Shown one piece after another: positions 5,062 to 31,189 of a stretch of 64,000 bases of DNA. Each line of letters begins with the position of its first letter. Position 1 is the first letter of the stretch. Made by a program: the position numbers and the translations under genes. The notes below the pieces were generated by a model. The model had not been told where the DNA came from and did no database searches. It saw only the letters and a list, made by a program, of their open reading frames with translations. The stretch comes from Cyanobacteria bacterium P01_E01_bin.6 (GTDB lineage: Bacteria > Cyanobacteriota > Cyanobacteriia > CAKZMO01), in NCBI GenBank assembly GCA_039194035.1, contig JBCCWF010000001.1, positions 3,970 to 67,969 of the forward strand, written 5' to 3'.

Positions 5062-5166
5062 TAAGTAGATAGACATAATTAAACGTATCCTTCCAAATCC
5101 TGTGCCGTCCGCGCAGCGGGCGGCACAGGATTTGGGGTTTTGGTTTTAATGACGTCCAGGTACTTA
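5062..5166. repeat. MITE-like dispersed repeat, family A copy 1 (TAAGTAGATAG...hairpin...GGTTTTAATGACGTCCAGGTACTTA)
   Basis: Shares termini (TAAGTA / TACTTA TIRs), the internal block CATAATTAAACGT, and a GC-rich hairpin AATCCTGTGCCG-CCGCGCAGCGGGCGGCACAGGATT with the other family A copies listed below. Confidence 0.7.
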
Positions 5167-5913: not shown

Positions 5914-7542
5914 TTAATTACCCCTCTCGGTATGGTTTAAATTTTCTTCAATTTCTATTAGTAAAGAATATGTGAGTGAATGGTCTGGGTTGATCCGAAT
6001 GGCTGTTTCAAGAGCTTCTAATGCATCGTTTGTTTGACCGAGCGCATATAGGGCATGGCCTTGTCCAGCTAGGATGTCGGGGTGATTTGGGGCTTTCGTA
6101 AGCGCTTCATTGTAGGCAATTAACGCATCTTGAAAATGCCCGAGGCTCGCCAATGCAGTGCCTCGGTTATACCAGCCGATATATGAATCCGGCTGACGGG
6201 CGATCGCCTCATCTGCCGAATCGATCGCTTCCTCATACCGTTGGAGATACCAGAGAATAACGCTGCGGTTTGCCCACGCATTTTCTTGTTGGGGAGCTAA
6301 GGCAACCACCTCATCATAGGCTTGGAGCGCAGGTTCATAATCGCCTTGACTTCGGTATGCAATGGCTTGGTTGAACCAGGCGGTCACCAGGCTTCGATCA
6401 ATCGTGAGTGCCTGATTGGATGCAGCGATCGCCTGCTCATACTGTTCAAGATGCCAATGAATGGCGGCCTGATGGGCCCAAGCGGGGGCATAAGTGGGCA
6501 AAAAGCCCACCGCTCGATTTGATAGTGCGAGGGCTGTGTCAAAATTGCCAAGATGAGCATGGCTGATGCTTTGTTGATCCCATACCTGACCGATACCCAG
6601 AGGCCCCCACGTGCCGTCTCCGGCGATCGCCAGTTCACATGCCTCTAGAGCTTCGCTGTGGCGTTCCAATCGATTGAGCACATCACAGCGAAAAACGTGA
6701 GCCTTGCTGGAGCTGGGATTGAGTCGAACGGCTTGCTCAAGGGCATGGAGGCTATCGTCATTGTGGTTTTGAGCAGCAAGCAAGAGTCCCTGTTCTAGCC
6801 ATCTGTCAAAACTGGTGTCGTCAGCGCTGAGGGTGAGGTCGTAGGCGGCGATCGCCCGGTCTGGATCACCAATCTGAGCAAGAGCAATCGCCCGATGATA
6901 GAGCGCCATCTCTGGAGACGTGTTGCCCCAATCTTGGTTGTACCCGAGAGCCGCATCGCAGTTGATCAGGGCTTCACGAGGTTTTCCTAGGTAGTTGAGT
7001 GCTTCACAGCGGCGAGTGCGGAAACCGGAGCGGTCTGGATCGAGATGGATAACGTGGTTGTAACTGGCGATCGCCCCTTCCCAATCCTCCATTCCCGCGA
7101 GGGCGAGTCCTCGATATTCCCAAGCATCATCGGGACTATTTGTTCCCCAATGGCGATCGTGGGCAAGGGCATCGTCACAGGATGCAAGTGCCTCATCATA
7201 CTGTTCTAGAGTGACCTGAATTTGGCACTGGGCTAGGTAACTGGGCGAATCGTCAGCGCCTTCGTTGATGGCGGTATAAATGGCAACGAGTGCTTCCGCA
7301 GGTTCGTCGAGCTGTTGGAGGAGTGCGGTGTAGGTTAGCCAGAGATCGTCATCGTTGGGTTCTATCCCGAGGGCTTGTTCGCAGGCGATGCGGGCGGTTT
7401 CTAGAGCATTGGCGCCGATGAGGATATGACAGCGATCGCGCCAATAGTCCTCGTCATCAATGCCGTAGAGTCTAGCCGGAGTCTGGGCGAGGGCAGGGGT
7501 GGTGAGGAGGAGTGTCAGTGGGAGTGCGATGAGAAGGCGCAT
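5914..7542 (-). CDS. TPR-repeat protein with N-terminal signal peptide
   Basis: Signal peptide MRLLIALPLTLLLTTPALAQ. Many 34-residue repeats with the W-LG-Y / A-Y--A-P signature (e.g. AIAAYDLTLSADDTSFDRWLEQG). Confidence 0.7.
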   Translation of the reverse strand: MRLLIALPLTLLLTTPALAQTPARLYGIDDEDYWRDRCHILIGANALETARIACEQALGIEPNDDDLWLTYTALLQQLDEPAEALVAIYTAINEGADDSPSYLAQCQIQVTLEQYDEALASCDDALAHDRHWGTNSPDDAWEYRGLALAGMEDWEGAIASYNHVIHLDPDRSGFRTRRCEALNYLGKPREALINCDAALGYNQDWGNTSPEMALYHRAIALAQIGDPDRAIAAYDLTLSADDTSFDRWLEQGLLLAAQNHNDDSLHALEQAVRLNPSSSKAHVFRCDVLNRLERHSEALEACELAIAGDGTWGPLGIGQVWDQQSISHAHLGNFDTALALSNRAVGFLPTYAPAWAHQAAIHWHLEQYEQAIAASNQALTIDRSLVTAWFNQAIAYRSQGDYEPALQAYDEVVALAPQQENAWANRSVILWYLQRYEEAIDSADEAIARQPDSYIGWYNRGTALASLGHFQDALIAYNEALTKAPNHPDILAGQGHALYALGQTNDALEALETAIRINPDHSLTYSLLIEIEENLNHTERGN

Positions 7543-7621
7543 GGGAAGGGGGGGATGGGTGAGGGAATGGATGGGCGAGGGAATGGAGGAGTGAGGGAGT
7601 GGGGGAGTAGGGAGGTCGTCG

Positions 7622-10196
7622 CTAGTGGATGAATTGAGGTGGGATTTCGGTGGGGGTTAAGCGATCGGGTTCAGTGGGTCGGGGGGTATGGATGGAGTCG
7701 GGGGTGTTGGTGGCTGCTCCGTCTTGACGAGGGGTGGGCGATCGCCTATTGAGGTCAACCCGTTCTTGAGCACTTGCTTCTGTCACGGGGGGCAGTGGGG
7801 GAATTGTTTCGAGGGTAACGGATCGACTGATGCTTTCTCCCGCTTGATTGGTGACGCGCAGCGTCAGGGTTTCAATGCCGCCTTGGGGACTGAGTGGGTA
7901 GGCGATCGCCCCTTGTCGGGAGACGGTTCCAGGAGCAGGCAATAACTCTACGGTGACTTCTGGATCTCCGTCCACGCTCCACGTGATGGGAATGACTGGA
8001 GCTGGATCCTCCAGGTTTAGGGGAATGACGTACTTGGGTTGAGACGATTCACCATTCACAGCAAAGGATGTAATGGCAAAGGACAGACTGGGACGCTCGA
8101 TTTTGATGGGGTCGGTGATGTGGGTGTCTAGGGCGTCTTCAGTTCTTTCGATGTCAGCACCATCTGGTCGGGTGAAGAGCTGGAGTTCAAAGGTGTAGTG
8201 ACCCACGTTGCGGGCAGGAGTCGGCACGTTCCAACAGGAGAGCGTCCCATCTAGTTGGCAATAGTCTTCTAGTTCTGCTGGAACCCCTCGACTAAAGTCA
8301 AACTCGATGGGGGAAATGAGCGGCGATTGATCCGCGTCTCGGCCAATTAGAACAAGTCGATGCAGTGCTTCGGGATGGGCGATCGCCCAATTTAGGCGAA
8401 TGGGGGGAGTGAGAGTTGACGGAGTCTGAAGGGTGCGGTTGATAGAGTCCGATGACTCGGGGGCGATCGCCGCCACGTATCGAGCCTGAGTCGGCTCGAA
8501 GGTTGTGATGTCTGGCAGGGGAGTAGGGAGGATGGTGATGGGAGCCGTTTGACGGTTGAGCGTCTGGGTGTTCTGCTGATGGCGACGCCCTCGTCTGGTG
8601 TTGACTTCTAGATCAAAGCGATACAGTCCTGCTCGATAGGCATCGGTGGGAACGTTGTGACAAACCAACTGCGCACCCGAAATACAAAAGGGTTTGAGCT
8701 GGGCAGGGATGCCGTCTGAAAAATCAAAGGTGACAGACGGGCTCACGATGGCATCATCCGTGGGCGATCGCCCTACCAGTTCAACAATTTGTACTTGCTT
8801 GGGCTGACTAATATGCCAGTTCAACCGAATGGGCATTCCGTCCATTTCTTGATAGGACACCTCTGCAGAGGAAAATTCCAGAATTTCCGCTGGAGCGGGA
8901 GGGCGCAGCAAGAGCCAGAGCGGAAATCCAACGAGCGTCAGCATCCCAGCTCCTAATAACAGCAATAACATCAGATGCCACCAAGGTCTTGGCTGCCAAA
9001 CCACTCCTCCTTGCAAGGCGTCTTGAGTCAGAGGCAGTGCTTGCTCATCATCCAGTTCCACCATGAAGTTGAACACTTGACCGCCGCCTCGGAAGGGGCG
9101 TTTTCGAGCTGGATAGGGCTGGATGCCCAAGCTCATCGTGATGGATTCGTTGGGCAATACCTGAATAACTGGAGATACAGCGGTGTCTGGTGTTGGAGTT
9201 GCGTAGGATTCGATACGAGCCACCTTTTCTCCCTGGGTGACTTCAGCCCAATGGAACCGACAGATATCCGTGGCTTCATCCAAAACCCTGGCTCGGAGAC
9301 GGACTCGTCGAGCTGTATTTCCCCCATTGTTGAGCCGAATCCAATACAGTCCAGCTTGATGCTTGACAGTGCTTACCAGCGTCTTTAGCTCTGTGGTCAA
9401 CAGATAATGGGGGGCAACTTCCAGATACAGAATGTCTAACAGCACCAGGTCAGGATTGTTGGCTGAATGGAGGCGCAAGGTCGGTGCATGTTGTCCAGCA
9501 AGGGCATGAATCGGCAGGGTGATGGTCAGGCGGATTTCTCCCGTGCTGCGAGGATTTAACTCCAAGCTATCCGCGTCACGCACAAGGCCAACGGTCTCAA
9601 ATCCTTCTGGATAGCGAATGTGATACCAGTTGGGCGCTAAGTCAGGGCAGGTTAGTCGGAATCGATCGACGCGATCCGAGCGGTTGTAGACCATCAGTGC
9701 GACTTCAACTGACCCGCCCGGTTGCATCAGGAGAGGCTGATTTGATCGGGTAATCGGCTGCACTGTAAAGGTTGGGTCATTGACCTCGACAGTGGTTTGG
9801 TATTTCGGAATGACCTGGATGCGCTGGTCGTATTGAATGGGGGTGTCTTCGGGATAGTGATCAGGGGCATCGACGACGACTTGATAGGGATATACCTCTG
9901 GTGGTATTTGCAGAGGCACCTGAAGTTGAAACAGCACCTCACTACTTTGTCCAGCAATCAATGCCAATCGCTGAAACGGATTGCTGCACCACTGCATCAC
10001 TATCTGCGAGACATCGCTCAAATACACATCTATCAGAGCATTGTGTGCCCCTCGATTGTGAACGATGACGCTGAGTTCAACGGTGGAACCAGCCTCGATG
10101 GCGTGTTGTCCTGATGGACTGACAATGGTGGCAATCGGACAGGCGGCGATCGCCGCTGAGGCATCGCTTGATTTATCGCCATAGAAATCATCCATG
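7622..10196 (-). CDS. large membrane protein with multiple Ig-like (CARDB/DUF11-like) ~100-aa repeats and one central TM segment
   Basis: Start placed at MDDFYGDK. The upstream 100 codons of the ORF overlap the preceding gene and a G-rich tract. Repeats of the N-S-[DA]----F-L ... P--WY type; three C-terminal LNW-I--P / ITWSV repeats. TM segment WWHLMLLLLLGAGMLTLVGFPLWLLL. Confidence 0.5.
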
Positions 10197-10349
10197 GGAC
10201 GAGTGTTGGGGGGATGGGGGGAGATGGTCATGGTGGTGATGGAGTGGGGTGGAGTGGTGGAGAGAGTGAAGGGGTGAAGGGTTGGCGGGGTAAAGAGGTA
10301 GAAGTGGAAGGAGGAGGAGTAAATGGGGAGTAAATGAGGGATAGGGGAT

Positions 10350-12509
10350 TTAGGGGGCGTTGGAAAGGTCGCAGAGGGCGTCGTGGGTGCGATCGCGGCG
10401 ACGGACGCTGACTTGGGTGTTCTCGTTCCCGGAGGCGATGAGAAGGTCGTCATCCCAGATTTTGATATCAACGGTGTTGAATGGTGTTCGGACACGCTCG
10501 ACTTGAATACCGTCTCGATATTGGATGGAGCGTGTTCCGGCGGATGAGAGGGGCCACAACATCACGCGGCCATCTGCTCCAGCACTGGCGAGGTAGCACC
10601 CGTAGGGACTCAGAGCAATATCCCGTAACGGTTCACCACCATGTCCGTCATTCCATTCGTCGAGCACTTCGCACGGACGATTCGAAATGAGGCATGGTTT
10701 CAAATCCCATAGGGTGATGTAGCCTTGATTATCTGCTGTGGCCAATAAGTAGGGCTGCAAAAACACAGCCTCAACGCTGGTAATATACTGTGCTTGGCTT
10801 CCGGGGCGCGGGTAGGTGATGTCTAGCACGGTGTCTTGTTGCCAGTCCCAAATCGAAAGACGGTTGTAGCGCCCACCCGCAGCAAGGGTCGATTTTTCGT
10901 TTCCGACCATGGCAATGCCATAGACCGCAAAGTCAAACTGATGGAGCCGCACGGGAAGTTGAGCGATGTCATTGCGATCGCCCTGGGGATAGTCGAGCGC
11001 CCATTGCAGAACGGCACCGCTGCCATGACCACTGAGCAAGTGTCGAGAATCGTGAGTGAATTCCAAATCCATCACTCGATCATCTCGATCGAGGGCGAAG
11101 GTGGTCGTATGCCCCTGCCCGGTAAAAGAGCTGATTTGGATTTCGCCGTTTTCGAGTCCTGCGGCTAGCCAGTCGTTGTTGACTGGGCGATAGCGCACCA
11201 CTCGAATGGCTTTACCGGCGTCGGGCGATCGCCCCAGTTGTTGATTGATGATGGGGTTGAAAAATCCATTCACCCGCCATTGAATGGAGGTTTGGTCGCT
11301 AGACCCACTGATGACGTCATCTGTCGTACCGCTTAACTCAACGGAATTCACCGCTGCGCGATGACCAAAATAGGGATTCCCTGGATTCAGCCAGGAGAAC
11401 CACCAAATCAGATACAACACAATAAAACCCCCTAGCCCCTGGAGCCAAAGGGGAATGCGAGGCGGAATCCGAAGCGTCACCAATTGGGTGTCATCTTGGA
11501 CATCCACACGGGTATCGCTGACGGTGCCTTTCATGACAAACTGCATCTTTTTTGCGAACCCGACCCAGTGCCGCGAAATCAGCGCCCCAAGCTGAATCTC
11601 TGCTTGTTCGCCGGGATGTAAAAGCGTTTGATCGGGCACCACTTGGAGAGGGAGATGCACGCGATCATCTCCTTCGACGTCGAGAGACGCCTTCAGGGGA
11701 ATATTGCTCTCATTGTCAAAGGTCGCATCCCAGTAGACGCCATGACGTCCCCATTGATAATGGCGATCGCGCACCGGGAGCGTGTGCTCTTCGGGTGTGC
11801 AAGCAAAGTGCACCTCACCTTGAGCCAACACATCCAAATTGCCCAGAGCTTCTGACGTGGTTCCCTCAGGCTGGATGGCTCGGAGCGTAAACGGATAAGC
11901 TCCACAGATGGCATTGACATGGTCAGGCAGTCTGACTATCAGTAAGGTTTCAACGGTGCTATCAGCGGGAATATCGATCGCCTGCTCAACACCGCCAACG
12001 ATCCATTCCGGTGGAATTCCGTCTATCCAGAGCGTCGTTTCACTCTTTTCATGGGACGAGTTTTCCAGAAAAACCGGAATCTGAACCTGGTCAAGCGGAT
12101 TTGCCTGAAACTGGCGCACGGGCATCTTGATGCCAATGGGTAGCTCGCCACCCGGATCAACCTGTAGACGGAGAATGCGCCTCTCTTCCCCAAGTTCTAA
12201 GGATGTGACACGTACCGTGAGATTCACAAGCCCAGCAAAGCCTGGAATCGGAGATCCCAAAATGGAGACGTGAAATTCGGTGCGATCGCCCGGTGGTTTT
12301 TTGCTGGCGATTTCTGGCGTGAGGTCGTACCAAGCGTTGGCGCTGTCTTCATTTCCAGGTGCAAAGAGATCCAATTGAAACGTCGCAAAACGATCGCTCT
12401 GATTCACCACCACCACTACGAACTGGGTCGGTTCACTGCCAGGGGTGTAGTGGAGGGTTCGGGGTGGAACCGCAATTCCAATGCGTGTATCGGTTGTTGT
12501 AAGAGTCAT
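10350..12509 (-). CDS. membrane protein: N-terminal Ig-like repeats, TM helix, C-terminal WD40 beta-propeller
   Basis: Three N-terminal ~110-aa repeats (NQSDRFATFQLDLFAPG...WYDL; NSSHEKSET...; NESNIP...). TM segment IPLWLQGLGGFIVLYLIWWFSWL. WD40-like repeats (GHRAAVNSVELS...SGSSDQTSIQW; LLSGHGSGAVLQWAL; WDW, LWDL motifs). Confidence 0.6.
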   Translation of the reverse strand: MTLTTTDTRIGIAVPPRTLHYTPGSEPTQFVVVVVNQSDRFATFQLDLFAPGNEDSANAWYDLTPEIASKKPPGDRTEFHVSILGSPIPGFAGLVNLTVRVTSLELGEERRILRLQVDPGGELPIGIKMPVRQFQANPLDQVQIPVFLENSSHEKSETTLWIDGIPPEWIVGGVEQAIDIPADSTVETLLIVRLPDHVNAICGAYPFTLRAIQPEGTTSEALGNLDVLAQGEVHFACTPEEHTLPVRDRHYQWGRHGVYWDATFDNESNIPLKASLDVEGDDRVHLPLQVVPDQTLLHPGEQAEIQLGALISRHWVGFAKKMQFVMKGTVSDTRVDVQDDTQLVTLRIPPRIPLWLQGLGGFIVLYLIWWFSWLNPGNPYFGHRAAVNSVELSGTTDDVISGSSDQTSIQWRVNGFFNPIINQQLGRSPDAGKAIRVVRYRPVNNDWLAAGLENGEIQISSFTGQGHTTTFALDRDDRVMDLEFTHDSRHLLSGHGSGAVLQWALDYPQGDRNDIAQLPVRLHQFDFAVYGIAMVGNEKSTLAAGGRYNRLSIWDWQQDTVLDITYPRPGSQAQYITSVEAVFLQPYLLATADNQGYITLWDLKPCLISNRPCEVLDEWNDGHGGEPLRDIALSPYGCYLASAGADGRVMLWPLSSAGTRSIQYRDGIQVERVRTPFNTVDIKIWDDDLLIASGNENTQVSVRRRDRTHDALCDLSNAP

Positions 12510-12565
12510 CGCGTTTTAGTTCCTGGTTCAATTCCCTGAGTCAATCGCCTGGGTTATTCCCAGCC

Positions 12566-14485
12566 TCAATCGCCTGCAATCAGTCTTCTTAAGCGGTTTT
12601 GTACCCAGTTCAGATAATTGTGTTGACCCTCTGATTCGGGCATTTGAAGAGTGGTCAAATTGTTTGATAACTCTTGGCTGGATGCTTGGCGCTGCTTCAG
12701 CGTATTGAGGATCCGATCTTCCAACTCTGGATACTCGGTCAGCACCTGACGTAATCCATTGCGATTCAACACAAATAGGGCTATTGGTGTGACCGCTCTG
12801 ACACTGGCAACCCTCGGCACATCTAGGAACAACGAAAACTCTCCCACCACTTCACCCGCTTGAATTGATGTCAAATAACGGGGCGAATCTTCATCCGTTA
12901 AGACCTCTGCTGTGCCATCTAACAAAAAATAGAGTTCATTCCCCTGATCACCCGCACGACAAATAGTCGTACCTGCTGGCACATGCTGCTCTTCCCCAAA
13001 TTCCAATAGGCGATATCGTTCTTCCAACGTAAAGTTTTGGAAGTAAGAAACGATTTGGAGGCGCTCCGCTAGGTTTGGAGCCTGTGCAAGGGCGATCGCA
13101 CTGCGAATTGACTGAGATTGGTGAATTAATTTTTGCCAGGCCGTGACATTCCCCAACTGCGTCAATTGAGCATGCCGGAGAGATTGTTGGGCATGTTCTT
13201 GCTGCAACTGTTGGAGCTGTTGTTGGAGTCCTTGCTGACGGCTATAGACAACCTTTGCCATATCTTGAAAGATGCGGGCTAAGCGCCCCAGTTCATCTTG
13301 TCGTCGGAGGACTGGAGTCAGCAAGTCTGGGTCATGCTTTTCTTCTTCAATTAGACATGCAGCTCGTGTTAATCGGATGATGGGCTGAGTAATCCAGCGT
13401 GCAACAAAAATGCCCATTAAGCTTGCACCAACGGCAACCAACAGTCCCACTTGAATGGTGGAACGTAAACTCGCAAGGGTGATTTCCTTGAAATCAGTGG
13501 ATGGCACCATCACCACGACAATCCAATCGATTCCCGCAGGATCAAAGATCGTGTCAACGCCGATGTATTGCTCAATGCCGGATATCTTTAGAACAAATTC
13601 TTCAGATGTCGTCAGGGTGGAAAACTGTCCCATTTCATCCAAGAGTTGAGTCGTAATATCTCGAATCAATGGGTTGTTGCTCTCGGTCGCGATAATGCGG
13701 TGCTTTTCTTGATCAATTACATCAATTACCTTAAAAAGCTCCGCATGCATGGACGTTGCAATGAGTTCTCCTGAGCGCTCCATCACAAAGGCATGACCCG
13801 CAGGGCTAATTTCCAGTTCTTCAAGGAAATGCCCCAGACTTGCCAGAGAAAGGTCAAGTCCAAAAACGCCCTGCACCTCTCCATCTGCTGTATATATCGG
13901 TTGGGCAGCAGTGACACCCAGAGTTGTTTCTGTGGCAAAGGCATAGACCGGACTCCAAGCAAACTCACCAGATTTGATTGCTTGCTCATACCAGACGCGA
14001 CTCCGTGGATCGTAGATCTGCGACTGAAGCAATTCGGTCGGTTCTCGCTGCTCATTTAGACGATAGGTTAGGCGATTTGGTACCGTGTCTTGATTGCGGA
14101 GCTGAATCGTCCAGCTTCCATCTCCGGCCTCGCTGAATCCCAAGTAATTCCCTTTGGCATTGCCAAAGAAAATGCGTTTGGGCAGATCGGGTTGCTGAAC
14201 CAAATTCCAGAGTGTATCTGCCAAATCCTCATGAGACGAGTAATCGACATCAGATGCACTGCCCTCTAAGGTGGCCAGCATGGTTTGATACAACACCTTG
14301 GAATCGGCGAGATGGTTTTTCACATGGCGCTCAATTGACCCAGTGGCTTTACGACTAATTTCCTCAGCGAGTTCATGCACCACTTCTTGTTCGCTGAGAT
14401 AGGAGAGCCAACTACCCAACCCGACGGCGGCAAAGATGGGCATGACGATGAGAATAGGGAGGGTGACACGGATGGGGAGGCGCAT
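12566..14485 (-). CDS. signal-transduction protein: N-terminal TM + periplasmic Cache-like sensor, HAMP domain, Gln-rich coiled coil, C-terminal cyclic-nucleotide-binding (cNMP) domain; no output enzyme or DNA-binding domain
   Basis: N-terminal TM. Second TM followed by a HAMP-like segment (VARWITQPIIRLTRAACLIEEE). QQLQQLQQE coiled coil. C-terminal cNMP-binding signature (GDQGNELYFLLDGTAEVL ... AGEVVGEFSLF ... RVASVRAVTP). Confidence 0.6.
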   Translation of the reverse strand: MRLPIRVTLPILIVMPIFAAVGLGSWLSYLSEQEVVHELAEEISRKATGSIERHVKNHLADSKVLYQTMLATLEGSASDVDYSSHEDLADTLWNLVQQPDLPKRIFFGNAKGNYLGFSEAGDGSWTIQLRNQDTVPNRLTYRLNEQREPTELLQSQIYDPRSRVWYEQAIKSGEFAWSPVYAFATETTLGVTAAQPIYTADGEVQGVFGLDLSLASLGHFLEELEISPAGHAFVMERSGELIATSMHAELFKVIDVIDQEKHRIIATESNNPLIRDITTQLLDEMGQFSTLTTSEEFVLKISGIEQYIGVDTIFDPAGIDWIVVVMVPSTDFKEITLASLRSTIQVGLLVAVGASLMGIFVARWITQPIIRLTRAACLIEEEKHDPDLLTPVLRRQDELGRLARIFQDMAKVVYSRQQGLQQQLQQLQQEHAQQSLRHAQLTQLGNVTAWQKLIHQSQSIRSAIALAQAPNLAERLQIVSYFQNFTLEERYRLLEFGEEQHVPAGTTICRAGDQGNELYFLLDGTAEVLTDEDSPRYLTSIQAGEVVGEFSLFLDVPRVASVRAVTPIALFVLNRNGLRQVLTEYPELEDRILNTLKQRQASSQELSNNLTTLQMPESEGQHNYLNWVQNRLRRLIAGD

Positions 14486-14560
14486 GGTGGTGGGTAGGGA
14501 AGGAGTAGGGGAGTAGGGGAAGGGGAGTAGGAGTGTGGGAATAAAGGTTTTAGAGGGCTT

Positions 14561-14631
14561 GGGTCGGGGCGCAGGGCATGTGCCTTTGGTCGGATGTTGA
14601 AGATACGGAAATCTTGATGAAAATGAAGGGC
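14561..14631 (-). promoter_or_regulatory. conserved ~70-nt intergenic element, copy 1 (between the 543-aa gene stop and the cNMP-sensor gene start)
   Basis: ~80% identical to 16181-16250. Shared blocks GGGGCGCA..CATG.GCC, TCGG.T.T.GAA.ATACG.GAAT.TTGATGAAAA.GAAGGGC. Contains an imperfect palindrome GGCGCAGGGCATGTGCC. Confidence 0.45.
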
Positions 14632-14646
14632 AAAGAGTTACAGGAG

Positions 14647-16146
14647 TTAGGGTGTTGGGGGTGGAGGGGAGGATGGTGACGGGGCCTGAAGTTGGGTGAG
14701 TCGATGACGTTGCCAGGTGGTGTAGAGGGCATTGATGCCTAGTTCTTCGGCGGCACGAAGATCACCCCGTGACAAAGGTTCACCTAGATAACCTTGGAGC
14801 GCGGAGGTAACGTTGCCTAAAATGACGCTGAATCCTCGTCCTACCAAGATTTTGTGGAGTTGCTGGGCAAAGGTCGGTAGGGTTGAAAAATGGAAGGGTT
14901 GGCATCGGAGGGGATGGAGAGGAGGCAGGTCTTCCCAAGGGGTCAGCGTAATATCGAGGGGTTGGAGAAATGGCTCATAGTGGATGCTGATGGTGGCTAA
15001 TTTTTCGCCAATGAGCACCGAAATTTCGTCGAGTTCTTGAGTCAGTTCACTGTGCATGCGATCCATGTCTGAGTTGGCAGGAGGGGCGTTGGACGAAAAA
15101 GCTTGTTGATTGGGCGATCGCCCCAGTCGAGCATCAGTGACATCCTGCACCGAACTGAGTTGCTTGATGGCATCACTGAGTCGCTGATGCACCATGAGCA
15201 ATTCACCGAGATCATCCTCTTGCATCGGGTGTTCGACGATAATGCTGCCTCCAGATTGAATGTAGTGCTGGAACGCGGCAGCACTATGTTGAATCATCTG
15301 TTGAAAGGAGATGTGGCTGATGAACAGAACCGCACAATCCAATAGTTCGGCTTGCACTGTCGGAGTCATTTCTGTGAAGATGAGTGGCGACAGTGGTTGA
15401 AGTTTGGGATAGAGTCCAGGGAGCGATCGCAACAATGACTCAATGCCCTCCACGAGTGGGGACTCATGACGAATGGCCACGCGAATCGAGGCCGTTGAGC
15501 GGGGACAAACCTGTGGGCGATAGCGCAAATCCAAACGACCTGGCGTCGGATTTAGAACATCTCGCACTGGCTCAAGGGCAACAAAATCTGCTTGTAGCTG
15601 AATTCGGCACAGCTCAATTTCATTGGCTTGAGGTGGACAGTCTTTCTCGTCAATCCGATAGGTCTCGCGCATGATTTGGTTGCGACCATCCCCTTCTAGG
15701 GTTTCGGGGTCGACATAGCGCAACACGATGTAAACAACCTGGCTACCAATTTCACCATTGGATAAAACGCGGCCAGCCTCGTTGCGGGGTTGTCCCCGGT
15801 GGTCGGGTTTGCTTTCGACCTGACTTCCTGGAACGGATGCAATGCGAAAGTCTACAGACTCTGGTACCACGATGGGGTTGCCATTCACATCAATGGCCAA
15901 ACCGGGCTGAATCTGGAGCCAGCGCTGATCGCGAAACTGACTCGCGACCGTAGACGGTGGTGGAATAATGCAAACGCCTAGCCCATCAACGATGCCAGGT
16001 TGGTTGACCGATTGAAAATGCAGGTTTTGGCGCTGTCGGTGATAGGCATGAGCCAATTGCCATCGCTCTGCATTAATCAGCAAGCCATCGGATACTCGCA
16101 ACCGTTCGAAGGGATCAAGTTTTGGAGGGGGGAGAGGATTGGGCAT
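14647..16146 (-). CDS. hypothetical protein in the baseplate-gene string (possible additional baseplate/tail component)
   Basis: Start placed at MPNPLPPPKLDPFERL, downstream of the overlap with the preceding gene. No confident family match. Co-directional and tightly spaced with the GpI-like gene. Confidence 0.45.
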   Translation of the reverse strand: MPNPLPPPKLDPFERLRVSDGLLINAERWQLAHAYHRQRQNLHFQSVNQPGIVDGLGVCIIPPPSTVASQFRDQRWLQIQPGLAIDVNGNPIVVPESVDFRIASVPGSQVESKPDHRGQPRNEAGRVLSNGEIGSQVVYIVLRYVDPETLEGDGRNQIMRETYRIDEKDCPPQANEIELCRIQLQADFVALEPVRDVLNPTPGRLDLRYRPQVCPRSTASIRVAIRHESPLVEGIESLLRSLPGLYPKLQPLSPLIFTEMTPTVQAELLDCAVLFISHISFQQMIQHSAAAFQHYIQSGGSIIVEHPMQEDDLGELLMVHQRLSDAIKQLSSVQDVTDARLGRSPNQQAFSSNAPPANSDMDRMHSELTQELDEISVLIGEKLATISIHYEPFLQPLDITLTPWEDLPPLHPLRCQPFHFSTLPTFAQQLHKILVGRGFSVILGNVTSALQGYLGEPLSRGDLRAAEELGINALYTTWQRHRLTQLQAPSPSSPPPPTP

Positions 16147-16180
16147 GGGGTTTGGGGGAGTGAAGGATTTAGATGACTGG

Positions 16181-16250
16181 GGGAGGGGCGCATCGCATGC
16201 GCCCTTAATCGGGTATGGAAAATACGAGAATGTTGATGAAAACGAAGGGC
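16181..16250 (-). promoter_or_regulatory. conserved ~70-nt intergenic element, copy 2 (between the GpI-like gene stop and the 543-aa gene start)
   Basis: Paralogous to 14561-14631. Contains the perfect 8-bp-stem hairpin GGGCGCAT-CGC-ATGCGCCC. Confidence 0.45.
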
Positions 16251-16258
16251 GATCGCCG

Positions 16259-17338
16259 TTAAGTTGGCCGAGGCTCAATATGTAGGTCGTATGTGCAGTG
16301 GGCTGGTTTTTCTTGGGTGATAATGCGGTGAATTAAAGGGGGATGAATGGTGTCGGTCGTGTCGGGGCGGAGGGTGACGATGAAATGATAGGGACGGCCT
16401 CTGCCGAGGGTGGCGTTGGGGCCAAGATGAACATCCCCAAGGGTGAAGGCTTGGTTGGATGATTCTTGAATGGAAATGGCGCGATCGCCCTCTGACAACT
16501 GGTCATCGAGGGGAAGTCCGGTGGCATAGTGCAAAAACAACCTCAGTCCCCGACGAGTTCCGCGCCATTGGTAGATTTCCATGGCATGACGCATCAGTCG
16601 TCGCTGCTGATTGGGTAACAGCGGCAGCTCATCCATCGGCCAAGCGACCCAATGAGCCAAGAACGGCAGGAGGGCTTCTGGGGCAGTGAGAGGATCGAGG
16701 TAGCGTGTCAGCGCCTCGGTTGTTTCGATAATGGGGCGGAGTGCTTGCTCAAACACCTGCAAATAGCGATGCATGAAATCGACTTCTCGGTATACCGCGG
16801 GTAGCAGTTCCGAGAGTCTTGTGCGGGGACGCACAAACAGATTCAGACCCATGTATTCGAGCCGCCGCTGTTGCCTAAGTTCTGTGTGATTGTCTGTGTT
16901 ATTTGCGGTGTTATGGGCGGTTAGCTGTGGATCGTTCAGCGGTACCTGGTGTTGATAGGCAACCACCACATCCATGCGGTAATCGAGGGTGAGGACTTGC
17001 CGAGGGCTGAGGGCATGATCATCTTCAAAAAAGGAGTCTGGAACCTGGAACCGCAGGACTCCTTCCATTCGCTTGTATGGAGCAATGTCGTGGGCTTCCA
17101 GCCGAATGTGATACCAGTGAGACGGGAAGTTTCCTTCCAGCCGGACTTCGATAGAAATTGGCTCAGCGCTGGTATTCTCAAACAGCATGAGCAGTTCGCT
17201 TGGTTCCCCAGGAAACAGCACCAGATTTAGGCCGCCGCGCCCCAATTCGTCCTCACTCGTCGTCGGGGCGATCGCCTCCGAGGTTTGCATGGGGGCAAAC
17301 CGGAGATTGAGCGCAGGAGCCGGACGAGTGTGAACCAT
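16259..17338 (-). CDS. phage tail protein, P2 GpI-like (TIGR02242-type) with an N-terminal Ig-like domain
   Basis: C-terminal region (LPFLAHWVAWPMDELPLLPNQQRRLMRHAMEIYQWRGTRRGLRLFL) matches the conserved tail-protein-I family signature (W-G--D--W-----R-L-----LY--RGT--GL). The N-terminus carries the same N-S...WYHI Ig-like motif as the neighbouring large proteins. Confidence 0.55.
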   Translation of the reverse strand: MVHTRPAPALNLRFAPMQTSEAIAPTTSEDELGRGGLNLVLFPGEPSELLMLFENTSAEPISIEVRLEGNFPSHWYHIRLEAHDIAPYKRMEGVLRFQVPDSFFEDDHALSPRQVLTLDYRMDVVVAYQHQVPLNDPQLTAHNTANNTDNHTELRQQRRLEYMGLNLFVRPRTRLSELLPAVYREVDFMHRYLQVFEQALRPIIETTEALTRYLDPLTAPEALLPFLAHWVAWPMDELPLLPNQQRRLMRHAMEIYQWRGTRRGLRLFLHYATGLPLDDQLSEGDRAISIQESSNQAFTLGDVHLGPNATLGRGRPYHFIVTLRPDTTDTIHPPLIHRIITQEKPAHCTYDLHIEPRPT

Positions 17339-17389
17339 AAAATCCTTAATCTAAAATCCTTCAATCACAAGAGCGCTGAACCATCGCCA

Positions 17390-19570
17390 TTACATCCTCA
17401 CAAATCGGATAAAATGGCCTGACCGCAAGTCTCGGTCATACCAAGAACAAATGAGGCCATTGGCTCCGGGGTAGACGGAGCCAGGAGAAATTTGCCGAAC
17501 CCATTGTCCCTGGTGATGACGTAGCTCAAACAACTGCACGGTGCCCAGATACTGAACGCCTGGAGCCTGTTGAATCAGAGCAATCACATCAGATGGGTAA
17601 ACCGGACGCCCAAACGACCAACCCGTGCCGTCTTCCCCGCCAGTAATGGGATTCAAAAAGCGGTAGAGGGTCGCCAGCAACGATTGCTGCACCGCATCCT
17701 GTGCCTGGGGAGATTGGTAGGCTGGGGCGAGACCAATTTCGGCTCGCACCGATACGCCGACATAGGTTGGCTGCTCCAACACCACCTGGGTTCCCAGGAG
17801 CTTTCGTTCATCGAGATAGGTTGTCAGGTGAGTTCGGAGGCTGGGGGTGAGGATGAACTGATCCGGTGCAATCCCCTGTCCTTGGGTGACGCCTGTGGTG
17901 GGAACCTGGGGAACCACCAAAACCTTGACAGTTCCAGCTTCCATAGCGGACTGGGCCGACAGGCATCGTGCCTGGGCGATCGCCCCTTCGCCGCCTCGCA
18001 TCACCAAGGCCTCAAAATCTTCGGGAGTGACGGCGCGATCGCGGCTCCGCAATAGCTTTGGCACCCGCATGACCGCTTGTTCGAGGGATTCTGCATCGAC
18101 TCCGTAGCGAGTTGGGTCATGGTTCACCACCTCAGCCACGTAGGGAATCGCGGTTTTCAGAACCCGCACGGTTCCCGCCTGAACATTGCCCCGCACACCA
18201 CCACCTGTCCGATAGCTCACCATCCGCAGCACCGATCCTCGGGGCGGAATCGCGCCATATTGATGTTCGGTTGATACGGCGGGTGCGGTTGCCGTTTGGC
18301 CATAGTCTTGAATTTGGAGACGCACCTGAGTCGCATTCGGCCCGTGAGATGGTTCTCGAATACGGGGGCCAAACTGCACCGTGCCTGCTTGTGAATCGAG
18401 TACGTAATGATGACTTTCTGGAGTGGAATCGGCAAAATCAGCAACTTCATGCCATTGCTGGGGCAATCCGTCAGGTGGCTGTACTTCTAGATACTCGCCA
18501 TCTCGGCGGGGCAACACAGGATGATTCAATAGCTGAAACGTCTGATTAGACGTACCATCGCTGATGCCTAACAATTCATCGCGAATCAGGGTGGCTTGGC
18601 TGGCGCGAACCGAGCCGCCAATGGCTCTCACGGAGAGTCCGACAATGCGAGGCGATCGGCTGTAGGCAGGTTGAGCAGGTGTTGACGGAATACACACACA
18701 CCGAATCCATCGCCCCCGATAGGTTGAAAACGCAGACACAGGCCAATGCTGCGGTAGATGGAGAACCACATCCCCTCCCTGGAGAGGATCCAGGCCTTCT
18801 TCGGTGATCGTGCTAAAGCTAAATCCTTGAGTTCCGTCATCCTCTTCTGTTCGCAGAATGGATGTCCAGGCTGTGCCATCCCATGCTTCCCATCGACGGG
18901 GAGGTGCACTTGGATTAATGCCAGTGGCCGTGGCAGCTTCTCCTTTGACCGTGAGAGAAAGAACGTTGCCATCTAATACTTCATCCGGTTCAAAGACCAA
19001 ATAAAACGCGTTGCCCGATGCGGGTTGATCATCAAAGAGGAGTTGTTCTGGCCCATCCCATCCCCCATCCGGATCTTGAATCCAGCGATTGGTGAGGCGA
19101 TCTCGCAGGGTTTGGGGCACCTCTTCAGTAAGGGAAGAGGTAAGAAAATGCTGGAGATGGGGCTTCCCGACCCGCAATGGACGATCGGTTGTAAATACCA
19201 CGGCCTCTTCTGTTTCCGTGCGCATGGTTGCGACCTCAATTCCGGCTGGAATCATGTAGGGTTCGGGCAGTACCGTATTGAGATAGAAGGTAAGATCGGC
19301 TTGGGCCGGAAGCGGAGGCTGTAGACGAATGCCTAAGAGTTCCAGAAATGAGACATATTGACGGCGTGGTACCTGGTTAAACCGTAGGAGCATTTGCTCC
19401 GTCATCCATCCAAACAGTTCAATCAGCGTCATGCCTGGATCGCTGGGATTGAAATTTGTCCACTCTGGGCAATAGCGAGGAATCCGTAACCGAGATTCGA
19501 CCATCAAGTCATCGAGCTTGCGGTCATCCAGATCCGATTTAGGCAGATTGGGCAAAAAATTGAATTCCAT
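17390..19570 (-). CDS. baseplate J-like protein (gp6-like; TIGR02243 putative baseplate assembly protein)
   Basis: The N-terminus (DLDDRKLDDLMVESRLRIPRYCPEWTNFNPSDPGMTLIELFGWMTEQMLLRFNQVPRRQYVSFLELLGIRLQPP) is a near-textbook match to the TIGR02243/baseplate_J N-terminal signature. Length 726 aa. Confidence 0.75.
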   Translation of the reverse strand: MEFNFLPNLPKSDLDDRKLDDLMVESRLRIPRYCPEWTNFNPSDPGMTLIELFGWMTEQMLLRFNQVPRRQYVSFLELLGIRLQPPLPAQADLTFYLNTVLPEPYMIPAGIEVATMRTETEEAVVFTTDRPLRVGKPHLQHFLTSSLTEEVPQTLRDRLTNRWIQDPDGGWDGPEQLLFDDQPASGNAFYLVFEPDEVLDGNVLSLTVKGEAATATGINPSAPPRRWEAWDGTAWTSILRTEEDDGTQGFSFSTITEEGLDPLQGGDVVLHLPQHWPVSAFSTYRGRWIRCVCIPSTPAQPAYSRSPRIVGLSVRAIGGSVRASQATLIRDELLGISDGTSNQTFQLLNHPVLPRRDGEYLEVQPPDGLPQQWHEVADFADSTPESHHYVLDSQAGTVQFGPRIREPSHGPNATQVRLQIQDYGQTATAPAVSTEHQYGAIPPRGSVLRMVSYRTGGGVRGNVQAGTVRVLKTAIPYVAEVVNHDPTRYGVDAESLEQAVMRVPKLLRSRDRAVTPEDFEALVMRGGEGAIAQARCLSAQSAMEAGTVKVLVVPQVPTTGVTQGQGIAPDQFILTPSLRTHLTTYLDERKLLGTQVVLEQPTYVGVSVRAEIGLAPAYQSPQAQDAVQQSLLATLYRFLNPITGGEDGTGWSFGRPVYPSDVIALIQQAPGVQYLGTVQLFELRHHQGQWVRQISPGSVYPGANGLICSWYDRDLRSGHFIRFVRM

Positions 19571-19658
19571 AGCGCTTCTCAGAGTATGGGGCCGAGAGGT
19601 GAAGCCAGATCATGAGGTGAGTAAGATGCCCGATAGCGCGGCTTATGACACTGCTGCA

Positions 19659-20195
19659 TCACGCCATTACCTCTAGGCTTGTGAATTCGGGTGCGTCAGA
19701 TAACTGATCCGTTGCCAGCTCGGGCGATCGCCCGAGCTGTTTGTCCACGTCTCCTTCTGGTCTGAGATAGAAGGGATAGACCAAACTACGAGCGTTGTAT
19801 TGATCGATCAAGCGATATTGAATGACTAAGTCAATGCGGCCTCGAACCGGATCTGGATCAGCCCGTACATCTTCCAACACAATGCGTGGCTCCCATCGCA
19901 CAAGGGCATCTTCTACCGCGATGCAAAGCTGCACGAGGGTGTCGGTGTTCATCGGCGCAAAGGCAAAATCTGTGAGGACTGACCCAAATTCGGGTTCCCC
20001 CACGCGTTCGCCTACATCGGTGCGAAGAATTAGCCAAATGGATTCCTCGACACTGCGTTCGGCTGAGCTGAACTGGAGACTTCCTTGGGTGCTAATCCGT
20101 AGCGGAAACGCCCACCCAGTTCCCAGCAACATCGATGTGTTTATTGGGGCGATCGCCCCATCCTGTCCATTGGCCATACAGACTCTCCATTCCAA
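19659..20195 (-). CDS. GPW/gp25 family baseplate wedge protein
   Basis: GWAFPL..., VEESIWLILRTDVGERVGEPEFGSVL and VRWEPRI match the PF04965 gp25 signature (I-QSI--IL-T--GER---P-FG ... EPRI). True start may be the internal MANGQDG. Confidence 0.75.
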   Translation of the reverse strand: MEWRVCMANGQDGAIAPINTSMLLGTGWAFPLRISTQGSLQFSSAERSVEESIWLILRTDVGERVGEPEFGSVLTDFAFAPMNTDTLVQLCIAVEDALVRWEPRIVLEDVRADPDPVRGRIDLVIQYRLIDQYNARSLVYPFYLRPEGDVDKQLGRSPELATDQLSDAPEFTSLEVMA

Positions 20196-20259
20196 CGATT
20201 GCCGTCACGATATCGCAGGGATGCGGAGGTCAGTATTCGCCAAAAGTCGAATAACGAAA

Positions 20260-20301
20260 CCTTGTCTAGTCAGAGCAACAACTGTTCCCAACTAGACAAG
20301 G
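20260..20301. promoter_or_regulatory. 11-bp perfect inverted repeat CCTTGTCTAGT-N20-ACTAGACAAGG, 65-105 nt upstream of the gp25-like gene (candidate operator)
   Basis: Seen directly in the sequence. The half-site 13-mer AAACCTTGTCTAG recurs at 24802-24814, and CTAGACAAGG at 34595-34605. Confidence 0.35.
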
Positions 20302-20444
20302 GTTGAGTTTATTGATCCAAATGTGCGAGTACTAGCTGTAATGCTTGTGGGCATACTTAACGTAGGGGTTAATCTCATTGACATCGTTTCTTTGTTATTG
20401 GCCTTTGGCATACTAAACGAATAAGCCCCCTGAGGAGATAGTGC

Positions 20445-26816: not shown

Positions 26817-28634
26817 ATGGTTTCGTCTGCCTATCGCTTTCTCGGCTCAATTAAGCTTGCTGTGCCTCTCTTGGCTGCCATCGTTGGCATTCTGATTTGG
26901 GCAACACTTTATGAGTCAACTGTTGGGTCTGCCCTCGTCCAGCAAGAGGTTTACAAAAGCCCTTGGTTTGGAGCGTTGATGTTTATGCTGGCCATGAACT
27001 TGGGCGTGTCAGCCATTAGTCGATACCCCTGGAAAGGCACTCGAAAGGTCGGCTTTGCCCTAGCGCATTTGGGACTCATTGTTCTGATTGCAGGCTCAGC
27101 AGCGGTCATTCACCTGAGTGTAGAAGGCATGATGCTGCTTCGAACCGACCAAGGCGCAAATAGCCTAGTCCGTGTGGACGGGGATTTATTAGACGTGGTC
27201 ACTCCTGATGGGCAGTCTGTCCAGACAGATCTGATGATCAAGCCTGACAACTCAATCATTCCGTCTCGCGTTGCAGGGTTGACTATTCTAGGCTACGAGG
27301 AAAATACGATTCGCACGGTCAGTTTTGAGGAAGGAGAAACGGTCGAAAATCCCGCCGTACGCATCAGTCTCAAGAGCGATCGCATGGGGCAGCTGACGGA
27401 GCGCTGGCTGGCGGCATCTCCCTCCATGTATCAGCAAGAAAATCTTGGCCCCGTGCGGCTTGAATTGTTACGGGTCAGTTCTGACGACGTTCTCCAGCAC
27501 TATTTGGCTGCGCCTGATGCACCCACTGCTGCAGGGCGATTTGGGACGCTGACCGTGACGGTTGATGGGAATGGGCGATCGCTCGACATTGAATCGTTTT
27601 TACAGACGCCTGTGGAGGTCACGCCAGACATCACCCTCACGGTGATGGAGTTTTGGCCAGACTTCCGGTTAGATGCTCAAAATCAACCTGCTACAGCATC
27701 ACAGCAGTTGCGGAACCCCGCTGTACAGCTTGATGTTTCCCGTGGAGAGAATCAAGAGCGTTGGTTTGTTTTTGCCAGTAGTGAGTTCGATCCTGTTCGC
27801 ACGGTCGTATCCGGATCAAGCCTGGAAAATATCGATATTCAATATGCGGCACAACCTCAGCGCCAGCAAAATCTCTTCCAGGTCATTGCTGCGCCTAACG
27901 AAAAGTTCTTCTATACAGCCCAATCATCGAAAGCGTTTACGTCTGGATCGTTGGACGTAGGTCAACCCATCTCCCCTGGCTGGGTTGATTTTCAGATCAC
28001 CCTGGAGGACGTGGTGTCCCATGCCGTGCCCAATCGTCAGGTGATTCCCGTAGACGCCAATGAAATCCAGGGTTCTCCATCGCTCCAGGTCGCCACACCC
28101 GATGGCGAAACGCATTGGTTGACCTGGGCAGAACCGACCACTCTGTCTACTCCGTCTGGGGATTACTTCGCGGCGTTTAGCCCCAAAATGCTGCAGTTGC
28201 CCTTTGCAGTCGCGCTTGATGATTTCATCGTGGAACGCAATGAGGGAAGTGAGTCTGTGGCCATGTGGACGAGTCAGATTCAGATCCAAGATGCTCACCG
28301 AGGAGAACTGAGTGAGCGACGAGTATGGATGAATCACCCAACCTGGTATCAGGGATGGAAAATGGCTCAGGCCTCCTGGAATCCTGGGGATTTACGCCAA
28401 TCAACCTTACAGGTGAAACGGGAACCATGGTGGGTCACCGCCCTGACGTGGAGCGGTTCTTTACTGGTTGTGATGGGTATTGTGGTGATGTTCTATGGCG
28501 CTTCTGTGGTGAAAGCGGTGAATAAGGTCCTGCCAACGACTTCTACTGATCCATCGATGAACGAAAAGACTCAGGGAAATGCAGAGGGCGATCGCCCTCC
28601 AGTTCCCGCTCCAGCATTGATTACCCAAGACTAG
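26817..28634 (+). CDS. ccsB: cytochrome c biogenesis protein CcsB/Ccs1 (ResB family)
   Basis: N-terminus YRFLGSIKLAVPLLAAIVGILIWATLYES is the ResB/Ccs1 signature. Large soluble central domain, C-terminal TM. 605 aa. Confidence 0.8.
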   Translation: MVSSAYRFLGSIKLAVPLLAAIVGILIWATLYESTVGSALVQQEVYKSPWFGALMFMLAMNLGVSAISRYPWKGTRKVGFALAHLGLIVLIAGSAAVIHLSVEGMMLLRTDQGANSLVRVDGDLLDVVTPDGQSVQTDLMIKPDNSIIPSRVAGLTILGYEENTIRTVSFEEGETVENPAVRISLKSDRMGQLTERWLAASPSMYQQENLGPVRLELLRVSSDDVLQHYLAAPDAPTAAGRFGTLTVTVDGNGRSLDIESFLQTPVEVTPDITLTVMEFWPDFRLDAQNQPATASQQLRNPAVQLDVSRGENQERWFVFASSEFDPVRTVVSGSSLENIDIQYAAQPQRQQNLFQVIAAPNEKFFYTAQSSKAFTSGSLDVGQPISPGWVDFQITLEDVVSHAVPNRQVIPVDANEIQGSPSLQVATPDGETHWLTWAEPTTLSTPSGDYFAAFSPKMLQLPFAVALDDFIVERNEGSESVAMWTSQIQIQDAHRGELSERRVWMNHPTWYQGWKMAQASWNPGDLRQSTLQVKREPWWVTALTWSGSLLVVMGIVVMFYGASVVKAVNKVLPTTSTDPSMNEKTQGNAEGDRPPVPAPALITQD

Positions 28635-28761
28635 ATTCTGTCGCTTTCGAAGGAATCACGATGCTTCCGACTCTCTGTACTTCGTAATGAGTAAGATACT
28701 GAACCAGACGATTCTGGTGCTATCGAGATAGAATCCGCCCATTTGATTACCTCTTTTAAAC

Positions 28762-30507: not shown

Positions 30508-30518
30508 GGAGGAAACCG

Positions 30519-31001: not shown

Positions 31002-31011
31002 TCAGTAAATG

Positions 31012-31104
31012 GCCATTATTAAACGTGCTGTTCCAACCCCTATGCCGCCTTCGCAGTGGGCGGCATAGGGGTTGGGGATTTGGTTTCATTCTGTCCAGGT
31101 ACGT
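31012..31104. repeat. MITE-like repeat family A copy 3 (hairpin variant CCCCTATGCCGCC / GGCGGCATAGGGG)
   Basis: TTAAACGTGCTGTTCCAA...GGTTTCATTCTGTCCAGGTAC. Confidence 0.6.
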
Positions 31105-31189
31105 AGTGTGTTGTCTCGTATTGTGTCTCTTATCGAGCAGCCTATTTTCCATTCGTTGTCTCATTCAGCTCATTTATTAGCCGTTCATC

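Follow-up and report, generated by a model that had tools for sequence, protein, structure and literature searches.

A sheath-less baseplate gene string from a cyanobacterial metagenome is probably the separated distal operon of a contractile injection system

In contig JBCCWF010000001.1 of the metagenome-assembled genome (MAG) Cyanobacteria bacterium P01_E01_bin.6, a string of eight genes codes for baseplate-wedge proteins of a contractile injection system (CIS) together with sensor, membrane and repeat proteins. The string lies in a stretch of 64,000 nucleotides which was analysed as a whole and is called the window below. An earlier note, made from the sequence of the window alone, had described the string as an orphan baseplate module. 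As a result of the comparison with related genomes we arrive at a different reading: with a probability of roughly 0.77, the string is the distal operon (baseplate wedge plus accessory genes) of a multi-operon CIS, which in this genome has been separated from the proximal part. Most likely, this proximal part, consisting of the sheath, the tubes, the tube initiator, the VgrG spike, the PAAR tip, the AAA ATPase and the terminator, is encoded elsewhere in the genome. The CIS lineage to which the string belongs is widespread in cyanobacteria, from Gloeobacter to Nostocales.

Wedge proteins of the string

The first three genes of the string code for Cis9 (gp25-like), Cis11 (baseplate J) and Cis12 (GpI-like), which are bona fide CIS wedge proteins. 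In profile searches, the gp25-like protein reaches 72.2 bits with PF04965 from Pfam (cut-off 27.2), Cis11 reaches 628 bits with TIGR02243 from NCBIfam (cut-off 155.8) and covers model positions 1-659 of 659, and Cis12 reaches 118 bits with TIGR02242 (cut-off 51.85) and also matches PF09684. As all three score above cut-off, the family calls of the earlier note (gp25, TIGR02243-type J and GpI-type tail protein) hold. When the sequences of solved structures in the PDB were searched, the best match of Cis11 was Cis11 of the CIS from Streptomyces coelicolor, CIS-Sc (9gtp_1K, E 2.5e-110), while the C-terminal domain of Cis12 matched Cis12 of CIS-Sc (9gtp_E, E 1.3e-7). At E<=1e-10, 1280 homologues of Cis11 were found; for the 120 best of them the identity is 57-100%, and all named ones in this group are cyanobacterial. 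A scan of the genome collection with Cis11 returned only two close relatives.

Cis12 has an additional beta-rich domain at its N-terminus, which is kept in 9 orthologues. The single-sequence structure model of Cis12 was unusable (pLDDT 39.7), so that it is only weak profile matches which suggest an Ig fold for this domain.

The string as the distal part of complete clusters

All loci whose sequence extends far enough have the gene order gp25, J, I, DUF4159-type protein, and the longer string which includes the WD40 and Ig genes was found in about twenty independent loci. According to gene-by-gene tblastn searches, gp25, J, I, the 499-aa protein, the WD40 protein, the Ig-repeat protein and, where the locus is covered far enough, the TPR protein have orthologues in the relatives. 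gp25 opens the string in all related loci except that of Kovacikia. The conservation of this neighbourhood across cyanobacteria had been raised as a question by the earlier note, and the string is indeed conserved in synteny.

Proximal CIS genes stand immediately before the orthologous string in three genomes. In Nostoc commune NIES-4072, genes for AAA, the gp19 tube, CIS_tube, VgrG and PAAR are followed on the same strand by gp25-J-I-DUF4159-WD40-Ig-TPR. In Desertifilum FACHB-1129, the order is gp19, CIS_tube, VgrG, PAAR, an inserted CHASE2 gene and then the string. On the Brasilonema plasmid pBOCT2, a single cluster contains the annotated sheath, tubes and assembly genes, VgrG, gp25-J-I-DUF4159, an AAA ATPase and a DUF4255 terminator. 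Cis11 from the window is about 58-60% identical to the copies in these three clusters. Thus, the string represents the distal part of a complete CIS.

A metagenome scan, in which both strands were searched, provided 80 further loci, 45 of which are informative as they extend for at least 3.5 kb upstream of Cis11. Two-thirds of the informative loci (30 of 45) have CIS_tube, VgrG or PAAR genes directly upstream on the same strand. In three more, other CIS genes (sheath, AAA, DUF4255 or tube) occur nearby in another orientation; one of these is from Stenomitos, where the two halves are divergent and about 9 kb apart. The other 12 loci, about a quarter, do not have proximal CIS genes upstream and begin with gp25, as does the window, so that the arrangement in the window is common and recurrent in the lineage. 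The same gp25-first order behind unrelated upstream genes was found in MAG J06627_8, which has a Cis11 with 81% identity, in Gloeobacter kilaueensis and in Leptolyngbya 'hensonii'.

Some of the related clusters carry additional genes. In Desertifilum FACHB-1129 (locus L008), an Avd-like (23S_rRNA_IVP/bAvd) gene is found between Cis11 and Cis12 (12408-12791) and a CHASE2 sensor gene between PAAR and gp25 (7275-9092). In Stenomitos rutilans (locus L095, 16855-20688), a phage-type integrase gene and a VapE-like gene are located just 3' of the PAAR-like gene. To us this pair suggests a mobile element at the PAAR|gp25 junction, where the clusters break. Between the gp19 tube and CIS_tube genes, the relatives encode a protein without Pfam match that varies from 263 to 2568 aa and of which only the last ~35 residues are conserved. 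It may be a tape-measure-like protein or a cargo.

Three relatives with a broken cluster retain both halves

For three of the relatives with a gp25-first or comparably broken string it could be checked if the tube-spike half is retained in the same genome, and this is the case in all three. In Nostoc sp. CMAA1605, the string is found on contig 65 behind unrelated genes, while contig 14 encodes the tube, a 2568-aa protein, CIS_tube, VgrG and PAAR, followed by unrelated genes. Plasmid pA of Kovacikia minuta, a replicon of 1.2 Mb, carries both halves with about 130 kb between them. Its string starts at J, behind AddAB-like, GFA and DUF1349 genes, and no gp25 was found either beside Cis11 (L012 19643-20001) or beside the distant tube-VgrG half. 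In Trichormus sp. M33_DOE_039, the halves reside on contigs of 149 kb and 454 kb. Split loci of extracellular contractile injection systems (eCIS) have been described before, including those of subtype iv of the type VI secretion system (T6SS-iv) (Chen et al. 2019, PMC6899500).

The orphan reading of the earlier note is therefore probably wrong, since relatives have the string contiguous with tube, VgrG and PAAR genes and all three checkable relatives with a broken cluster keep the other half. An ordinary split eCIS locus, which the note itself had named as the observation that would speak against an orphan, has been encountered, although in the relatives only.

The window and MAG J06627_8 have the break in common, and the comparison between them covers seven of the eight genes, namely those with a counterpart in the J06627_8 sequence that was fetched. 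With pN at 0.11-0.19 and pS at 0.67-0.77 (saturated), dN/dS amounts to 0.03-0.11 in six of the seven genes (0.11 for gp25, 0.04 for Cis11); for the sensor gene, dS is too saturated to be computed. All seven compared genes are under strong purifying selection. As these low ratios were obtained for two genomes with the same break, they indicate that the string is functional and not a remnant.

The G+C content of the string follows that of each host genome, from 0.41 to 0.64, and in the window it equals that of nearby housekeeping genes. This indicates long residence rather than recent transfer. A recent horizontal transfer or a genomic island, as might be suspected from the higher G+C at 6-20 kb, was rejected for the same reasons.

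Missing proximal genes and alternative interpretations

Pfam scans of essentially all larger open reading frames (ORFs) identified no sheath, tube, spike, ATPase or terminator gene in the 64 kb. tblastn searches of the window with sheath, tube, CIS_tube, VgrG, PAAR, AAA and DUF4255 proteins from the same lineage were also negative; below E = 0.01 they gave just a 33-bit stretch, in which the AAA query matched part of the Cis12 gene. Elsewhere the window consists of ordinary cyanobacterial genes, e.g. for a phycobilisome-like protein, cytochrome c biogenesis and glycosyltransferases. The absence of sheath, tube, VgrG/PAAR and AAA ATPase genes from these 64 kb, as pointed out in the earlier note, thus stands.

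If there were no sheath, tube or spike anywhere in this MAG and in G. kilaueensis, the string would be a true orphan, and its wedge, DUF4159-type, Ig/WD40, TPR and sensor proteins might form a sheath-less, membrane-anchored ring or platform that serves signalling, adhesion or scaffolding instead of injection and is regulated by cyclic nucleotides. This would have been a remarkable finding. Such a ring would represent the first case in which the baseplate of a contractile tail has been exapted by itself, but we consider it unlikely. Several observations fit an orphan, and most of them also count against a separated operon. In the sequence covered for this MAG, which comprises the window and the remainder of the 78-kb contig, the proximal half did not turn up. 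Among the best 120 of 2994 matches in a VgrG profile search, none is named for this MAG, for G. kilaueensis or for Leptolyngbya 'hensonii'. The gp25-first state which the window has in common with J06627_8 is under strong purifying selection. Geller et al. score the genus Gloeobacter 0/2 for eCIS, yet G. kilaueensis carries a gp25-first string. Two further points concern only our own reading: around half of the contiguous clusters lack the WD40 and Ig genes, which are therefore not universal parts of the system, and the membrane-docking and cyclic-nucleotide-gating roles proposed below are inferred solely from synteny, domain content and rules of topology. The survey by Geller et al., however, is bound to at least 10 clustered core genes and scores Desertifilum 0/1, although FACHB-1129, which possibly differs from the genome surveyed, has a contiguous cluster; for both reasons its negative score is weak. 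Against an orphan, the three checkable relatives with a broken cluster have kept the proximal half, and Cis11 from the window is 58-60% identical to the copies from complete clusters and shows no sign of belonging to a separate, faster-evolving clade. Moreover, the established role of gp25 is to start the polymerisation of the sheath.

It is even less probable, and in our view quite unlikely, that the string is a decaying, non-functional remnant of a CIS after deletion or rearrangement of the proximal half. Such an event would be in line with the position of the break, which is exactly at the PAAR|gp25 junction, also used as an insertion site in relatives (by CHASE2 in Desertifilum, by extra genes in some metagenomic loci). 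A remnant is difficult to reconcile with eight ORFs that are all intact, with the low dN/dS of six genes, even when considering that synonymous sites are saturated, and with a gp25-first arrangement that is kept in distant cyanobacteria. An origin from the tail of a P2-like or other myovirus prophage or from an R-type tailocin comes to mind because the Pfam names GPW_gp25, Baseplate_J and Tail_P2_I derive from phage proteins, and we give it hardly any weight. TIGR02243 and TIGR02242 score far above their cut-offs, while the P2 gpI equivalog TIGR01634 reaches 15.9 with a cut-off of 30.05; the best solved match is a bacterial CIS; genes for a capsid, a terminase, an integrase or lysis are absent from the window; and the complete relatives bear the eCIS hallmarks AAA ATPase and DUF4255 terminator.

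Accessory proteins

The domain architectures which the earlier note had read from the translations, a Cache-HAMP-cNMP sensor without output domain, a membrane protein with WD40 propeller, a membrane protein with Ig-like repeats and a TPR protein, were confirmed by Pfam matches and conserved single transmembrane helices. The sensor matches dCache_1, HAMP and cNMP_binding, and two of its segments, residues 1-30 and 342-366, are hydrophobic. In about 15 related loci, contiguous ones as well as gp25-first ones, the same slot is occupied by HAMP-cNMP sensors with varied input domains, such as a Tll0287-like domain in Kovacikia.

The WD40 protein matches PF00400 and many other beta-propeller models of Pfam, and its gene is syntenic in many loci. 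Like the Ig-repeat protein, it has one conserved transmembrane helix and no signal peptide. This helix is kept in 8 orthologues of the WD40 protein; that of the Ig-repeat protein is strong and kept in 6 orthologues. As lysine and arginine are enriched on the upstream side of the helix of the WD40 protein, its N-terminus is predicted to be cytoplasmic and the propeller extracytoplasmic. Orthologues of the Ig-repeat protein match NPCBM_assoc/NEW3 (29 bits, above cut-off) and, more weakly, CARDB, Ig_VWA7 and PapD-like models, while the copy from the window has no significant Pfam match and just a sub-threshold PapD-like one.

In their N-terminal regions, the two membrane proteins are clearly homologous (96% probability with hhalign, E 5e-9, 307 columns). 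The similarity of the Cis12 N-terminus to either of them is marginal (E 1e-4 to 5e-4, probability 30-57%; control pairs gave E 0.1-0.35). An Ig-like motif had been proposed in the earlier note to connect all three proteins. This connection stands for the two membrane proteins and remains marginal for Cis12.

The TPR protein starts with MRLLIALPLTLLLTTPALA-QT, which appears signal-peptide-like from reading the translation. Its orthologues hold the same position in loci L006, L007, L021, L031 and L083.

The 499-aa protein, listed as a 500-aa unknown in the earlier note, is not wholly unknown. Its N-terminus matches the NCBIfam family CIS13_fam (NF053767) at a sub-threshold 37 bits (cut-off 370), and 43 of 51 members of its family have a DUF4159 match, which the copy from the window itself does not. 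A DUF4159-type protein is also present in Nostoc sp. PCC 7107, Gloeothece PCC 7424 and Leptolyngbya NIES-3755. The structure model is confident (pLDDT 88.7, pTM 0.87) and consists of a beta-rich N-terminal region, an alpha/beta region and a long helical hairpin. A simple hydropathy scan gave no transmembrane segment, and nothing meaningful was obtained when the family profile was compared with PDB sequences. Foldseek provided TssK as a lead for the DUF4159 protein, with a similarity that is statistically non-significant.

WD40 and DUF4159 have already been listed among the domains enriched in eCIS operons. A literature search on this accessory set retrieved no paper and no functional study, and with the PADLOC defence models the string gave only generic matches to cNMP-binding domains and TPRs.

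Genes for signal transduction recur in or beside the clusters of this lineage: CHASE2, a histidine kinase with response regulator, a Ser/Thr kinase with FHA, PP2C and a 955-aa cNMP-binding protein. They are reminiscent of the phosphorylation control of T6SS.

Proposed mechanism

We propose the following model for the separated distal operon. A pair of Cis11 copies and a single Cis12 per wedge would assemble, as in CIS-Sc, into a hexameric baseplate around a hub that is encoded elsewhere, and Cis9 would link this baseplate to the first sheath ring. The 499-aa protein would take the tail-fibre/TssK position, where its Cis13-like N-terminal part might dock on the wedge while the DUF4159 head points outwards. 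The cytoplasmic Ig-like repeats of the two bitopic paralogues could reach the baseplate periphery, and the WD40 propeller or additional Ig repeats would then lie on the outer side of the membrane. Both paralogues, along with the exported TPR protein, may dock the loaded particle on a membrane. Through the dCache-HAMP-cNMP sensor, finally, docking or firing may be made dependent on an external ligand and on intracellular cyclic nucleotide. A membrane anchor and a regulation by cyclic nucleotides had been suggested in the earlier note for an orphan baseplate. From synteny, the predicted bitopic topology and the precedent of CisA in Streptomyces, both ideas are plausible for accessory parts of a complete CIS.

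While the splitting of loci is already known, the membrane and cNMP accessory genes are uncharacterised. They provide concrete candidates for membrane docking and signal gating of intracellular CIS, be they cytoplasmic or thylakoid-anchored. The string defines a large cyanobacterial CIS lineage with the cell-death CIS of Streptomyces, rather than the thylakoid system of Anabaena, as its nearest solved relative, and the PAAR|gp25 junction is a recurrent break point in this lineage. Genomes with such a break can be missed or miscounted by operon-based eCIS catalogues that demand many clustered core genes.

Gene arrangement and other features of the window

The string consists of eight co-directional ORFs on the minus strand (from 20195/20177 down to 5914), separated by gaps of about 50-160 nt (Table 1), in agreement with the tight spacing described in the earlier note. 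Also as described there, the upstream neighbours, a coiled-coil protein and an HNH endonuclease, are unrelated, and on the other side the string is followed by genes for a DUF2227 protein and tRNA-Val. In contiguous relatives the position upstream of gp25 is occupied by PAAR or VgrG, while the window has the divergent coiled-coil gene there. The intergenic region between the latter and gp25 (20196..20444) gave no convincing sigma-70 match. In a promoter and terminator scan of 5-21 kb, promoter-like sites were fewer than in shuffled sequence, and the scan gave no useful signal for the limits of the operon.

Table 1. Genes of the string, the adjacent intergenic region, and additional genes in related loci. 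Positions without a locus name refer to the window; L numbers denote related loci.
Feature	Position	Strand	Remarks
gp25-like sheath-initiator/wedge protein (Cis9)	19659..20177	-	PF04965; ATG at 20177, ORF extendable to TTG at 20195
Baseplate J / Cis11 wedge protein, 726 aa	17390..19570	-	TIGR02243, full length
Cis12 / GpI-like wedge protein, 343 aa	16259..17290	-	TIGR02242 and PF09684; extra conserved N-terminal beta-rich, Ig-like domain
499-aa protein, tail-fibre position	14647..16146	-	Cis13-like N-terminal part and DUF4159 (GATase1/ThuA-like) part with long helical hairpin
Membrane sensor	12566..14485	-	Transmembrane helix, periplasmic dCache, transmembrane helix, HAMP, coiled coil, cNMP-binding domain; no output domain
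Bitopic WD40 protein	10350..12509	-	N-terminal Ig-like repeats, one transmembrane helix (~residues 352-374), C-terminal WD40 propeller
Bitopic Ig-repeat protein, ~870 aa	7622..10234	-	One mid-protein transmembrane helix; ORF to 10495 overlaps WD40 gene
TPR protein, signal-peptide-like N-terminus	5914..7542	-	TPR Pfam matches; last conserved gene of the string
Divergent intergenic region 5' of gp25	20196..20444	.	Break point relative to contiguous relatives; presumed promoter region
Variable-length protein between gp19 tube and CIS_tube	L010 1667-9373; L014 2421-9371; L095 3525-9206; L096 3062-9352; L008 90-4106		
Signalling genes in or beside clusters	Brasilonema L011 6551-11618; Gloeobacter L004 21131-22199; Kovacikia L014 14457-17324		

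Between two convergent genes just past the point where the string ends on its 3' side (5091-5137), there is a hairpin whose 20-bp stem is perfectly paired and which continues into a T-rich stretch. It is probably a bidirectional terminator.

Several other regions of the window deserve mention. A C-5 cytosine DNA methylase gene adjoins that of an MT-A70-type adenine methylase (765-2389), with no recognised restriction enzyme beside them. On the plus strand, a dense haem-related cluster that is unusual for a cyanobacterium (26817-41014) codes for a ResB-like protein, two CcsA-like cytochrome c biogenesis proteins, a Rieske protein, a tandem-globin protein, two multihaem c3/MtrC-like cytochromes, a Tll0287-like haem-PAS protein, a thioredoxin and a ChaN haem-binding protein. 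A protein of 721 aa (47518-49683) combines a 5'-nucleotidase C-terminal domain with RTX calcium-binding repeats and DUF7467. Finally, genes for glycosyl-, sulfo-, methyl- and acetyl-transferases form an island of low G+C content (0.40-0.46; 50423-63670), which is probably an exopolysaccharide locus.

Comparison with known systems

With T6SS (TssE/F/G/K, TssJLM) the string has the wedge logic in common, gp25 corresponding to TssE and J to a TssF-type protein, and the DUF4159 protein is a possible analogue of TssK. The Ser/Thr kinase, FHA and PP2C genes that relatives carry in or next to the cluster resemble the control of T6SS by threonine phosphorylation. However, the TssE equivalog TIGR03357 scores only 19.3 bits (cut-off 53.2), and there are no TssJLM, ClpV or Hcp-type genes.

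The thylakoid-anchored CIS (tCIS) of Anabaena PCC 7120 is likewise from a cyanobacterial host, and the 499-aa protein has the above-mentioned weak match to the Cis13 family in its N-terminus. In Anabaena, the periphery of the baseplate (Cis12, Cis13) is adapted for membrane attachment, and the cluster is contiguous (PMC8894136). The string belongs to a different lineage, as CIS12_fam (NF053768) reaches 53.8 with a cut-off of 860 and CIS13_fam 37 with a cut-off of 370. Cis12 of the window, with 343 aa, does not have the C-terminal extension, and the Cis13-like protein has no predicted transmembrane helix and a DUF4159-like C-terminus. There was no Anabaena tCIS chain among the PDB sequence matches of the string proteins. 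The comparison with extended anchors in thylakoid-anchored CIS that was made in the earlier note is thus to be taken as an analogy only.

A split eCIS that works as a machine is the T6SS-iv of Amoebophilus asiaticus, in which the afp11 baseplate genes are located apart from the afp1/5 tube genes (PMC6899500). Three relatives of the window locus have baseplate and tube genes apart in one genome, as in the loci of Chen et al. Unlike the 13 such genomes reported there (PMC6899500), the present lineage is gp25-first in about a quarter of the informative loci, with a break that recurs at the same junction, and for this MAG only the baseplate locus has been seen.

The closest similarity is to CIS-Sc of Streptomyces coelicolor (type IId; 9GTP), in which two Cis11 and one Cis12 form the wedge and the gp25-like Cis9 binds the first sheath ring (PMC12237407). 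The two systems differ in that the cyanobacterial string has an extra Ig-like domain at the N-terminus of Cis12, a Cis13-like/DUF4159 protein, a HAMP-cNMP sensor and a TPR protein, in that it codes for Ig-repeat/WD40 membrane proteins where CIS-Sc has a CisA-type solute-binding-like protein (no search was aimed at a CisA homologue), and in that its cluster is split and its host a Gram-negative phototroph. In Streptomyces, firing depends on the bitopic membrane protein CisA, whose gene holds the same position (PMC12237407); in function, CisA is the nearest precedent. Both systems do without a conventional tail fibre, and at the usual site of the fibre genes, directly downstream of the baseplate genes, both encode bitopic membrane proteins which, in the cyanobacterial string by prediction, have the N-terminus inside and the C-terminal domain outside. 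With Cis11 and Cis12 of CIS-Sc as the nearest solved relatives of the wedge proteins, CIS-Sc is the system which the string resembles most.

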